The position numbers were made by a program. From sequence record OZ365185.1: a stretch of 47,066 nt of DNA. One strand, given 5' to 3'. Within the stretch, counting starts at the first letter, position 1. Every line of letters starts with the position of its first letter. Of the stretch, positions 39,001 through 45,000 are shown in pieces. This DNA comes from a phage.

Positions 39001-42000
39001 TAAATCCGTGCGCCTTACGCACATTTCGTAATGGTGATTGCATATAACCTCCACATATTGCGTGATAAGCATATTATTTCACGCAAATATTTTGCGCAAG
39101 TTGATTTGCTTAACGCGCAATAAAGAAATGTAATAAACGCATGAACATAGGAAATCGAGTCAGACAACTTCGCCAGGCGAAGAACATGAAAATCGCCGAT
39201 CTCGCTGAAGCAATAGGAGTGGATGCGGCGAATATCTCACGCCTGGAAACAGGTAAGCAGAAACAATTCACTGAACAAGCCCTGAGTAATATTGCCAGGA
39301 GCTTAGGTGTTGATATTGCAGATCTCTTTACCTCAGACTTCAAAAGTAATACTGTATGTAAAAACAGTACTGGTGAGGATGTTGCGCAGGTGAAGGATGT
39401 ATTCCGTATTGAAATGCTGGATGTCAGTGCCAGTGCGGGAAATGGCCTTATCCAGGGCGGTGATGTCATTGATGTGATTCATGCCATTGAATACATAACT
39501 GATAATGCTGTATCGATGTTTGGAGGACGACCAGCCAATCACATTAAAGTTATCAACGTTCGTGGGGACAGTATGTGTCCAACCATTGAGCCAGGAGATC
39601 TCATCTTCGTTGATATCAGTATCAATCAGTTTGATGGGGATGGTATCTATGTGTTTGGTTTTGATGATAAAATTTATGTCAAACGACTGCAAATGATACC
39701 TGACAAACTACTGGTGATTTCTGATAACCAGATTTACCGTGAATGGGGAATTACCAGCGAAAACGAACACCGGTTTATGGTCTTTGGGAAGGTCTTAATC
39801 AGTCAGTCACAAACCCTTAAGCGACACAATTAACCCCGACCTCCTCATCAATTAGCCACCAGAAGGTGGCTTTTCATCACCCATCATATTGCGCATCTCG
39901 CAACAAAACACTTGCATAATGCGCAATTTCATTTTATCTTTCTTTCCAGACCAACAAACAAGGTCCTAACAAAATTTGGTTGTAACACGGCGTATGGCAC
40001 ATGCGTCGTTAGCGGTCTGGGGACGTTAAAGGGGACAATCCACTCCTTGCTCGGGCAAACAAACCAGGTAGCCGGAATGTGCAAGTCAATGAGGATGCTG
40101 ATAAGACGCCTAACCAGCGTGGCGATTCGGTTTGACGCCTGGGAAGAGACCAGGACGCAACGATGAGAGCATTGATGAGCAAGGCATAAGTGCTGGTTCA
40201 ATTCCAGACAGTCCCATTCAGATGGGAGGGTTGGGCAGGGAAAAGGTCCGTTCGATTCGGACACCGGCAATGCTCTCAGCGTTGTGGTGAATGCGCAGGC
40301 TGATGCGCGAAAGACATTGCAGCTATTGCGGAAAAGAGCTGTTCGGCGGGGCAATCAAACGCCCGTGAGAGTCTGAAATAACCGCAAGCCGGAGATCAGC
40401 ACCGGTCACCACAACAGCCACTGCTTTGGCAGTACCAGTTTGTACACTTGCTTCCGGCTGGTACCGCTCTTTTTACAAAACAGAGAAGAGCATCACCGGA
40501 CGACGGGCTCATAACCCAATCCATCCGGGCGGCTGCCACCGCAGGTGTTCTTCTCTGTTTTGTGGAGAAACCAACCGACCTTGCAGGGTCGATATGATGA
40601 GGAGCAACAAAATGGCTAGCGAACGCAGTACTGATGTGCAGGCATTTATCGGGGAGCTGGACGGCGGCGTATTTGAAACCAAAATCGGCGCTGTTCTCAG
40701 TGAAGTCGCTTCCGGTGTGATGAATACGAAAACCAAAGGTAAGGTCTCGCTCAACCTGGAAATCGAACCATTTGATGAGAACCGTGTGAAAATCAAACAC
40801 AAACTCTCATATGTTCGCCCGACTAACCGCGGGAAAATTTCCGAAGAAGACACCACCGAAACTCCGATGTATGTCAATCGCGGTGGTCGCCTGACTATTC
40901 TGCAGGAAGACCAGGGACAATTACTGACTCTTGCCGGTGAACCTGACGGAAAACTCCGCGCAGCAGGTCATTAATATCGTTCTTAATTAACTGATTATTT
41001 ATCTCATCACTGAATATCTTTATATAGTGAGGACTTATTATGTCTCAGAACTTAGACGCAACCGCAATTAATCAAATCCATGCCCTTATTTCTGCTCAGG
41101 GTGTTAATGAAATTATCAGTAAGATTGGTGCCGATGCTGTGGCATTGCCTGAGAATTTCCGCATTCATGATCTGGAAAAATTTAATTTAAATCGCTTCCG
41201 TTTCCGTGGTGCGCTTTCCACTGCCAGCATCGATGACTTTACCCGTTATTCTAAAGATCTTGCAGATGAAGGCACCCGCTGCTTTATCGATGCTGATAAT
41301 ATGCGTGCCGTCAGTGTGCTTAACCTGGGTACTATTGATGAACCAGGTCACGCAGATAACACCGCCACTCTCAAACTGAAAAAGACAGCACCGTTCTCTG
41401 CTCTGTTGTCTGTTAATGGCGAGCGTAACTCCCAGAAATCACTGGCAGAATGGATTGAAGACTGGGCCGACTACCTTGTGGGCTTTGATGCGAATGGTGA
41501 CGCCATTCAGGCAACAAAAGCGGCTGCGGCAGTCCGTAAAATCACGATTGAAGCAAACCAGACCGCTGATTTTGAAGATAATGACTTCAGCGGCAAACGC
41601 TCCCTGATGGAGTCTGTCGAAGCGAAGACCAAAGACATTATGCCAGTGGCATTTGAATTTAAATGCGTTCCGTTTGAAGGTCTGAAAGAACGTCCGTTTA
41701 AATTACGCCTCAGCATTATCACTGGCGATCGTCCTGTACTGGTTCTGCGCATTATTCAGCTGGAAGCGGTGCAGGAAGAAATGGCTAACGAATTTCGTGA
41801 TCTGCTTGTTGAGAAATTCAAAGACAGCAAAGTAGAAACCTTTATTGGTACTTTCACCGCCTGATTTCATTACTGCAAATGCCCCTGCGGGGGCATTTAT
41901 GGAAACGTAATTAACTCAATAATCACCGGATGGTGAGGGCTTCCTTTTACCAGAATTCAGCGCGGTGCAGCGCATATACGTGGAGAACAAAATGTCATTT

Positions 42001-45000
42001 ATTAAAACTTTTTCCGGGAAGCATTTTTATTATGACAGGATAAATAAAGACGACATCGTTATTAACGATATCGCGGTTTCCCTTTCAAATATCTGTCGCT
42101 TTGCAGGACATCTTTCACACTTCTACAGCGTCGCCCAACATGCGGTGCTTTGCAGCCAGCTGGTACCGCAGGAATTTGCTTTTGAAGCGTTAATGCATGA
42201 TGCAACAGAAGCATATTGCCAGGACATCCCCGCACCACTGAAACGCCTTCTTCCTGACTATAAACGGATGGAAGAAAAAATAGACGCCGTAATCCGTGAG
42301 AAATACGGGTTACCTCCTGTTATGAGCACGCCAGTGAAATATGCCGATCTCATTATGCTGGCAACCGAACGCCGCGATCTCGGGCTTGATGATGGGTCTT
42401 TCTGGCCTGTACTGGAAGGTATCCCGGCGACAGAGATGTTCAAAGTTATTCCACTGTCACCAGGCCATGCCTACGGGATGTTTATGGAACGTTTTAACGA
42501 GTTATCGGAGTTACGCAAATGCGCATGAATGTTTTCGAAATGGAAGGGTTTCTTCGCGGGAAATGTGTACCGCGAGATCTGAAAGTGAACGAAACAAATG
42601 CTGAGTACCTGGTACGTAAATTCGATGCGCTTGAAGCTAAATGTACGGCACTGGAAAACAAAATAATACCAGTGTCAGCTGAACTGCCACCAGCAAATGA
42701 AAGTGTTCTGTTATTTGATGCTAACGGAGAAGGCTGGCTAATTGGCTGGCGTTCTCTCTGGTACACCTGGGGACAAAAAGAAACCGGAGAATGGCAGTGG
42801 ACATTTCAGGTCGGGGACCTTGAAAACGTCAATATCACTCACTGGGCAGTAATGCCGAAAGCACCGGAGAATAAGAAATGAGCGTGATAAAAACTCATAC
42901 AGGAATTGTTATCACCCGAGACGGTCCGCAGGTAAAAAAACTGCACCAGACAAAGCGGATGTGGGTCGTCGGAAAAAACGAGTTTTACCACAAAGAAACC
43001 GGACGCCGCCACTTTGCAGAAAATACGCGCCGCCGACTGCTGATCGACAGCATCAAGCCTATCGAGGTGAAGCATGTTTAAACAGAACGAAAAATCTATC
43101 GCTCAAATTGCTGAGTATATCCCGCGTGCGTGCCGGGGTATGCAGTTGCAGGAAGCCAAAGCGCGCCTGGAGAAAAAAATTGCGCTCTATATCGATGACG
43201 GCTGTGATGCTGCCGTTCTTAACGCAGCGTTCGCGCCAGCTCTTAACAGTCATACGCGGGAGTCTTTTTTTTCGCGCATCGCAGCGCAGATCCGTAAAGG
43301 AGGCAACCAGTGAGCGAGATTAACTATCAGGCTCTGCGACTGGCGGCAGAAAATGCAACACCAGGCGAATGGTGTGCTGATGACTACCATGGAGTAATTG
43401 CCGATGCCGGACTGAACGCCAATTACTACATAGCATCATGCTCAGGACCAGATAATCGCGCCAATAAACGATTCATAGCCGCCGCCAATCCTGCCACCGT
43501 CTTGGCGCTGCTGGATGAGCTGGAAGCAGCAGAGAAGCGAAACGCAAAATTACAAAGCGAGAATGCATACATCCGCAACCGGTACAAAGAACTGGACCTA
43601 TTAATCGGGAAAAACATTCTGGTCATGCAGGCTGCCATTATCGAATGGCAGGCAACTGGCGACGCTAAGAGCGGACTGGCATGGATTTATAACACACTGT
43701 TTGGCCCTGGCGAATTACCGGACGAATCTGAGAAAGATGCTCAGGCCTACTTTAATCGCAAATATGCACCGATTGACGAAAAGCTTATGGCGCTTCACAA
43801 GTGGTTTTGGGAACAAAGTGAAGCCGAGCGCGCCGCCGCCAACATTGGTGTGAAGGGGAAGTGAGATGAACGGACAAATCTCAATTGTTCGACCGGGAGC
43901 ATGTGACGATTGCGAGATACGAATGATTATTCGTCTGGCGAGGGGGAAAACAATAACTGCTCTCATTACTCCTGAAAATCTCGCATTAGCATTAACAGGA
44001 AAGTCAGACCTGCCAGTAGAGCTAAAGCTGCGAAATATTGAGATTAAAGTGAAATAGTTATGAATACTCTTACCAAAGAATGGTTACAGAACACGATTAC
44101 CAGCATTGAGTCAGCACGGGATGAAATACCGTTCGGACTCGATGAAGATCAAAACAACATGCTTACCGCATTAAAAATTGCACTGGCATCACTGGCAGCA
44201 GTATCGGATGAACGAGCAGCCTATGAATTATTTATGGAGAAGCGTTTCGGGGAATCTGTAGATCGCCGTAGGGCAAAAAATGGCGATAGAGAATACATGG
44301 CATGGGATATGGCGCTTGGCTGGATTATCTGGTGTCACCGCGCCGCCATGCTTCAGGGTAGCCAACCTGTAAGCCAAACTTACAACTTGCCAGAATTAAT
44401 CGAAGGCATGGAAGTTTCCATTGATGTAAGCACTTGTGATGCTGATTTAGGTAATCGCTATTTCGGCACCGTCACCGAGGCGTTAGAACTTGATACAGCC
44501 AAGAATGGTTACATCCTCCTGGTTCAGGACGCAGAGCCAAACTTCGATGTAAATGGCAACTCTCCGGGAACTCCGGATAGTTGGATAAGCTGTAGTGATC
44601 AAATGCCTGAAAAGGGCCAGAACGTGCTTATTTCGGTGAATTTCGATAGCTCTCTGGTTGAACCGCTAATATGCTCCGCACGCTATACCGGAAGCACCTT
44701 TCGGCGCGGAGATGCAACGATTAAGCCGGGTAATGGTATTGAGCAAGCAACTCACTGGATGCCGCTACCGGAACCGCCGCAGGAGGTGAAGTGATGAACA
44801 ACTTAATGATCGACCTTGAGACGATGGGGAAAAATAAGGATGCACCGATCGTTTCCATTGGCGCGGTGTTCTTCACTCCAGAAACCGGAGACATCGGACA
44901 AGAATTCTATACGGTTGTTAGCCTGGAAAGTGCTATGGGGCAAGGAGCTACACCTGACGGCGATACCATCCTGTGGTGGTTGAAACAAAGCCCTGAAGCA

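Follow-up and report, generated by a model that had tools for sequence, protein, structure and literature searches.

A yfdPQRS cluster and a covarying leader RNA in the early-left operon of a Chi-rich stx2-type prophage without a Rec module

Two published studies describe the closest known counterparts of the phage locus presented here. The first is a 2025 survey of 325 lambdoid genomes in Genome Research (PMC12315714), which recognized a class of phages that have no recombination (Rec) module and mostly carry many Chi sites, the high-Chi range being at least six on the top (late-gene) strand. The type phage of this class, LLS, grows better with RecBCD and has 20 of its 23 Chi sites on the top strand, and its genes gp37-39 are yfbR-like, yfdQ and yfdP genes. 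The survey found yfdP/Q/R to be common, but neither confined to Rec-less phages nor universal among them, and judged their products unlikely to be recombination proteins, since phage ArgO145 carries the cluster together with a full Rec module; it also describes duplication of Rec functions as very rare. The second study (Noguchi and Katayama, PMC4776307) concerns the same genes in E. coli K-12, where multicopy yfdQ and yfdR, together with either yfdS or yfdT, suppress over-initiation mutants, inhibit DnaA-dependent initiation at oriC in wild-type cells and increase hydroxyurea resistance, and where YfdR binds DnaA. Here we analyse a phage sequence of 47,066 nucleotides (OZ365185.1, the whole of which we call the window), an E. 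coli lambdoid prophage carrying stx2-type genes, in which yfdP-yfdQ-yfdR-yfdS are the first genes past the repressor gene in the early-left operon.

All four genes lie on the plus strand and are nearly identical to their K-12 counterparts. yfdP (40612-40974) encodes a 120-residue protein with 99% identity to K-12 YfdP and ends 66 nucleotides before yfdQ (41040-41864), whose 274-residue DUF2303 product is 99% identical to K-12 YfdQ. It is followed by yfdR (41992-42528), which encodes an HD-domain phosphohydrolase of 178 residues at 98% identity (4 of 178 residues differ), and by yfdS (42519-42881), encoding a 120-residue DUF551 protein at 99% (116 of 117 aligned residues identical) that scores 22.2 bits against a Pfam cut-off of 22. 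The window therefore holds the gene set for DnaA inhibition, yfdQ, yfdR and yfdS, at 98-99% identity, and it is from this near-identity to K-12 that we would expect its proteins to inhibit oriC initiation and its YfdR to bind DnaA. In this respect the finding adds little, since the genes are named, the overexpression phenotype and the layout with its link to Rec-less phages are already published, and the yfdP-yfdQ-yfdR stretch is common: of 5426 complete E. coli genomes, 2456 (45%) have at least 80% of it at more than 90% nucleotide identity.

Our best explanation of the locus, to which we assign a probability of roughly 0.55, is that the cluster serves host takeover while recombination proceeds through host RecBCD and Chi. 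After induction the yfd cluster would be transcribed early from pL and would act as a host-takeover module that holds back initiation on the host chromosome, with the YfdR-DnaA interaction as its central step, and it might perhaps also trim deoxynucleoside monophosphate (dNMP) pools. Recombination-dependent replication would fall to the host's RecBCD and RecA, working at the Chi sites of the phage. The cluster would fill the usual Red slot without doing the job of Red. This explanation supposes that the multicopy phenotype in K-12 reflects a natural role in lytic growth. In a Shiga-toxin prophage, a RecBCD/Chi strategy instead of Red, and any block to host replication, bear on induction and on toxin output.

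The missing Rec module was established in several ways. Among stop-to-stop segments of at least 66 residues on both strands of 34193-46804, the Pfam families for RecT/Bet, Erf, Rad52, YqaJ/Exo, Gam and SSB (single-stranded DNA-binding protein) gave no match, and the only recombination-type match was RusA in the nin region. A tblastn search of the whole window with lambda exo/bet/gam, P22 erf/abc1/abc2/arf, Rac RecE/RecT and the Rec genes of ArgO145 and of Xanthomonas phage Olaya returned nothing significant (best E 0.018), and RusA is the one recombinase that RefSeq annotates in a largely collinear prophage. The window thus has no annealing protein and no 5'-3' exonuclease or anti-RecBCD function that these searches could find, its only exonuclease being a DEDDh enzyme of 3'-5' polarity. 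An earlier reading made from the sequence alone (the sequence-only reading) had seen no bet, exo or gam homologue, and this is borne out for the small open reading frames (ORFs) as well. A hidden recombinase was also considered and rejected on the strength of the Pfam scan, tblastn and seed searches of the related loci introduced below.

Chi sites (GCTGGTGG) are abundant in the window: 16 lie on the minus, late-gene strand between 13487 and 45354, and four more on the other strand. The total of 20 compares with 2.4 expected from dinucleotide shuffles and with 10.2 at K-12 genome density, and the 16 on the late-gene strand with 5.1 expected at K-12 density (Poisson P 9e-5). When we counted Chi in LLS we obtained 20 sites on the top strand and 3 on the bottom strand, in agreement with the published figures (PMC12315714). 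With 16 late-gene-strand Chi sites and no Rec genes, the prophage therefore fits the class of phages that are Chi-rich and lack a Rec module; on the most economical interpretation, the phage lets host RecBCD handle its recombination.

The place of the cluster invites another thought, namely that YfdP-YfdQ, with or without the DEDDh exonuclease, are an unrecognised recombination system standing in for Red. The cluster does occupy the Rec-module slot, an oligomeric PDB (Protein Data Bank) entry of a YfdQ homologue, 9o7m, recalls SSAP (single-strand annealing protein) rings, and related loci point the same way at first sight: in a scan of genome contigs that yielded 80 loci from different species (a scan of viral contigs returned only copies at about 100% identity), a search with Rec-gene seeds found an SSAP or an exonuclease within 7 kb in only 2 of the 80. 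Most of these loci, however, share one backbone of repressor, cII-like, Rha and integrase genes, and because the immunity and replication backbone is shared, the scarcity of Rec genes among them mirrors a single lineage of phages and not a set of independent associations. The cluster also co-occurs with complete Rec modules, which is hard to reconcile with a substitute for Red where duplicate functions are so rare (PMC12315714). In ArgO145, gam-like, RecT-like, exonuclease and SSB genes stand directly upstream of a YfdP homologue and a DUF2303 gene, and in Olaya a few genes separate yfdP-yfdQ from those for a recombinase, an exonuclease and an SSB. LLS, which bears the cluster, still gains from RecBCD and is Chi-rich (PMC12315714), and the DEDDh exonuclease has the wrong polarity for SSAP pathways. 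AlphaFold2 (AF2) models of YfdQ and YfdP showed no Rad52, RecT, Erf, OB-fold, Ku/Gam or nuclease fold and no match to a known fold in a PDB set that did not include 9o7m. Taken together, we hold a stand-in for Red to be highly improbable. The sequence-only reading had the cluster replacing exo-bet, which is right as to position; as to function it does not hold, with yfdP-yfdQ found beside or near full Rec modules in ArgO145 and Olaya.

The host-takeover explanation places YfdR at its centre, and here the sequence speaks for an intact HD protein. YfdR starts at ATG 41992 in RefSeq and in K-12, with an alternative GTG at 41965, and it matches PHROG 318, 'deoxyribonucleoside 5' monophosphate phosphatase' (E 6e-110), as well as Atu1052, an HD protein of solved structure (2gz4; E 2e-13), as was anticipated when an HD-domain protein ending at 42528 was called from the sequence. 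The possibility that its motif might be degenerate had been raised at the same time, and the alignment answers it: conservation across 58 homologues is at least 95% for the metal ligands (H50, H69-D70 and D119) and for E73 and D78. E73 and D78, three and eight residues past the aspartate of the HD pair, are what we take to be the equivalents of the catalytic residues of YfbR. YfdR shares the H..HD..D metal site of YfbR and Atu1052-type proteins and, by sequence, the same small all-helical HD domain as Atu1052. It differs from YfbR in falling far below the YfbR equivalog cut-off of NCBIfam (PRK03826; 19.9 against 122 bits) and below that of Pfam PF12917, its Pfam YfbR-like and HD_3 scores lying slightly under the curated cut-offs (24.2 against 25.9 bits), and also in its reported DnaA binding and in nucleotide affinities much lower than those of the dNMP phosphohydrolase YfbR (Zimmerman 2008, as cited in PMC4776307, and so second-hand). 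By sequence, YfdR belongs to an HD subfamily distinct from YfbR.

These features bear directly on whether YfdR might instead be mainly a 5'-deoxynucleotidase like phage T5 Dmp, shifting dNMP and deoxynucleoside triphosphate (dNTP) pools in lytic growth, with YfdP and YfdQ as accessories. The conserved metal and catalytic residues, the PHROG 318 match, the RefSeq name 5'-deoxynucleotidase and the hydroxyurea resistance conferred by multicopy yfdQRS/T all favour such an enzyme, while the low nucleotide affinities and the wide shortfall against the YfbR equivalog argue against it. So does the distribution of the gene: an HD gene adjoins yfdPQ in 52 of the 80 loci and lies on the same strand in 57, but is missing from the remaining 23, among them all nine loci at or below 45% identity (the non-enteric genera), and none was found in ArgO145 or in the Vibrio, Xanthomonas and Halomonas phages that retain yfdPQ. 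The gene after DUF2303 in ArgO145 is not an HD protein, and gp22 of that phage was rejected as an HD homologue (BLASTP E 60). We therefore consider a role centred on nucleotide pools unlikely.

The invariant association is a different one from the conserved pairing of DUF2303 with an HD hydrolase that the sequence-only reading proposed. A YfdP homologue stands directly upstream of YfdQ in 79 of the 80 loci, with gaps of -12 to 193 nucleotides, and the sole locus without one is interrupted by a contig end. YfdP homologues of 35-59% identity also precede YfdQ in ArgO145, in a Vibrio podovirus and in Olaya, and a gene of size similar to yfdP precedes it in a Halomonas temperate phage, so that the pair extends to distant lytic and temperate phages. 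Because YfdP-YfdQ are adjacent in 79 of 80 loci against 52 of 80 for the HD gene, and because the HD gene is absent from the non-enteric loci, YfdP-YfdQ are the obligate unit, which the HD gene accompanies only optionally and mostly in enterobacteria. A few database proteins bear both PF10065, the Pfam DUF2303 family, and PF27127, the precomputed Pfam accession of YfdP (P0011, P0073, P0308); they may be yfdP-yfdQ fusions or frameshift artefacts.

YfdQ itself is a full-length DUF2303 member, as called from the sequence for 41040-41864: residues 7-272 cover positions 2-269 of the 269 in the PF10065 profile at E 2e-92 (309.7 bits against a cut-off of 26.6). The family comprises 1467 clusters at 50% identity, and its invariant polar residues include H104, Q132, E140, D141, R52, R56, R166 and R223. 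It is also uniformly acidic, with an isoelectric point of about 5, a property that separates none of the hypotheses. YfdP and YfdQ are PHROG 204 and 210, phage families of unknown function, and we take the low numbers to mean that they are among the largest such families. The PDB contains a homologue of YfdQ (E 1e-44), entry 9o7m, 'YfdQ Protein', whose 36 chains, each of 274 residues, may form a large homo-oligomer; no literature was found under the entry code, and papers after 2022 that name YfdQ include no structural study. YfdP has no relative in the PDB, and neither protein has a PADLOC match.

One may ask from this whether YfdP-YfdQ form a separate two-protein machine of new fold, working independently of the HD protein in anti-defence, in host manipulation or as an accessory of DNA metabolism. 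The near-invariable adjacency that reaches distant lytic and temperate phages, the size of the family and its many invariant polar residues, the homologue solved with 36 chains, the usual setting of the pair among replication, recombination and SSB genes, and the weak sensitivity of a yfdQ deletion to methyl methanesulfonate (MMS) and hydrogen peroxide (literature cited in PMC4776307) would all suit a machine of this kind. Against it, there is no PADLOC or known-fold match, and the 36 chains are possibly crystal or asymmetric-unit copies and not a biological assembly; we regard an independent machine as doubtful.

Against this background the host-takeover explanation can be weighed. The statement in the sequence-only reading that the function of these proteins is not established still applies to their role in the phage life cycle, but is superseded as regards inhibition of DnaA-dependent initiation and the binding of YfdR to DnaA (PMC4776307). 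Several results from that same work count against extending it to lytic growth: the block to oriC initiation was seen with multicopy expression only, replication was normal in a yfdQRST deletion, YfdR purified and on its own gave no inhibition in vitro, YfdQ showed no detectable binding to YfdR or DnaA, and yfdP was dispensable on the plasmid, where we infer that a chromosomal yfdP copy was still present in the K-12-derived hosts. In the present data, the Chi enrichment is a correlation and confidence in the AF2 models is moderate (predicted local distance difference test, pLDDT, 75-76). Because the YfdP-YfdQ pair is invariant and widespread without the HD gene, its core role is probably something other than assisting YfdR.

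The most novel thing in this analysis is a covarying leader RNA upstream of the cluster. The 780-nucleotide leader between the repressor gene and yfdP (39834-40611) contains no convincing ORF and no N-like antiterminator gene, and a promoter scan found no consensus sigma-70 site in it; LLS and most related loci have the same long leader in front of yfdP. Within it, RNAalifold and a covariance model delineate a structured RNA of about 104 nucleotides (40469-40572, plus strand), some 40 nucleotides upstream of yfdP, in which a 25-bp outer stem encloses two adjacent hairpins. RNAalifold finds compensatory changes in 13 of 34 pairs. In a 14-sequence alignment the outer stem is 91.8% paired, against 37-64% with slid partners, and 14 of its 25 pairs show double changes, the observed values being reached by none of 500 shuffles. 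The element is carried by 30 of 77 loci at 67-98% identity, and with the covariance model related loci and LLS yield exactly one plus-strand copy, positioned alike, while HK022, lambda, P22 and ArgO145 yield none. In Yersinia, Serratia, Proteus and Morganella loci a 20-25-bp stem is kept while the sequences differ, and a 62-nucleotide block of the leader that belongs to the element is 90% identical to LLS, though the flanking proteins are only about 60% identical. Conserved G-U pairs, together with a plus-strand score of about 110 bits where the reverse strand scores about 42, favour an RNA over a DNA palindrome.

As to what this RNA might be, a known family is rejected for now, Rfam giving no match even at E<=1, as is an antitermination site of the HK022 put type, which would have related copies in both early operons, the window having a single copy and HK022 none. 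The lambda N leader contains an RNase III processing hairpin, and by analogy the element may be an RNase III-type processing site or a translation-control site for yfdP. Visual reading of the sequence suggests a hairpin resembling a terminator behind the repressor gene, as well as palindromic, operator-like repeats and candidate pL hexamers near 39890-39930. Bringing the leader and the obligate pair together gives a tentative picture, which we rate well below the host-takeover explanation: YfdP-YfdQ could be an obligate machine of two proteins without a recognisable fold, possibly a large homo-oligomer, with an undescribed early role (DNA metabolism, takeover or counter-defence) across phages of Proteobacteria, its enterobacterial expression gated by the leader RNA, for example through an RNase III-type hairpin.

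The remainder of the window is organized as follows. Replication, nin, Q, lysis and structural genes are on the minus strand, and the early-left operon occupies the plus strand from about 39.9 kb; there is a cro-like gene (38783-39043, minus) and a cI-like repressor gene (39141-39833, plus). The stx2-type A (29001-29960) and B (28725-28988) genes, the three tRNA genes upstream of them (30055-30303) and the small RNA STnc100 directly downstream (28425-28637) are all on the minus strand. The Stx2a prophage of strain 2014C-3097 matches the window in collinear blocks of 93-99% identity over most of its length, and exceeds 98% identity across the early-left region. In the early-right region, adjoining Rfam matches to C4 antisense RNA (82 bits) and isrK (59 bits) at 37694-37882 (minus) lie inside a long ORF with a Rha-family regulator domain at its end, and this pair suggests a P1/P7-style antisense immunity element.

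Downstream of yfdS the early-left operon continues, on the plus strand, with two small ORFs (42878-43081 and 43074-43313; PHROG 1226 and PHROG 1344, both of unknown function) that are annotated as hypothetical proteins in a near-identical prophage. Next come an Ead/Ea22-like gene (43310-43864; Pfam PF13935, E 4e-19), the C-terminal two-thirds of whose product resembles the PADLOC 'DpdH' model (E 2e-37), a further small ORF, and the gene of a second DUF551 protein of 244 residues (44060-44794; Pfam E 4e-21). The Rv2179c-like DEDDh 3'-5' exonuclease gene then begins at 44791 or 44794 and ends at 45366 (Pfam PF16473 E 4e-75; PADLOC DEDDh model E 2e-5); its product is related to gp34, the DnaQ-like exonuclease of LLS, at 81% identity. 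The Pfam matches of yfdS, of the second DUF551 gene and of this exonuclease uphold the downstream order that had been read from the sequence. The operon's last gene encodes a PrtN-family protein (45403-45675; Pfam PyocinActivator E 2e-21), possibly the excision directionality factor, judging from its position at the prophage end and from an integrase gene at the opposite end. That integrase gene is annotated at 1-958 of the closest relative (L001), corresponding to about 333-1290 of the window, beyond the tail-fibre genes; KplE1/CPS-53 has the same split arrangement, of intS and torI. The segment from about 45650 to 47000 is missing from L001. It includes, on the minus strand, an antitoxin-like gene with a SocA/Panacea domain (46280-46768; E 2e-16 in Pfam, and in NCBIfam E 1e-27 to SocA_antitoxin though under its cut-off) followed by an ORF of 182 residues (both in segment 45709-46768) with no family match and a hydrophobic C-terminal stretch; the two may form a PanA-type toxin-antitoxin pair.

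Set beside described systems, the locus resembles lambda Red (exo-bet-gam), RecET and P22 Erf/Abc in its position, with the yfd cluster in the same pL-operon slot, the one separating the immunity region from xis/int, and differs from them in having no sequence or fold similarity to any of the three. The cryptic prophage CPS-53 (KplE1) of E. coli K-12 has yfdP-yfdQ-yfdR-yfdS in the same order, with the protein identities given above and about 98% nucleotide identity over 40593-42869 of the window. CPS-53, however, is a remnant: it has neither repressor nor leader RNA, and in place of the Ea22, DUF551 and exonuclease genes that lie downstream in the window it bears yfdT, ypdJ and torI, whereas the cluster in the window sits in a prophage that retains lytic, replication and stx genes. 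LLS is more distant in sequence, its proteins having 62% (YfdP), 57% (YfdQ), 67% (HD protein) and 81% (exonuclease) identity to those of the window, and its growth is aided by RecBCD (PMC12315714). The repressor in the window is unrelated to that of LLS, the window carries stx2 and the extra DUF551 and Ea22 genes, and its integrase lies at the other prophage end. The two nevertheless share the order of the early-left region, running from the repressor through a long leader to yfdP, yfdQ, the HD gene, small genes, a DnaQ-like exonuclease and an excision gene, and they have in common the same leader RNA element, the lack of a Rec module and a late-gene strand rich in Chi (16 of 20 sites in the window and 20 of 23 in LLS).

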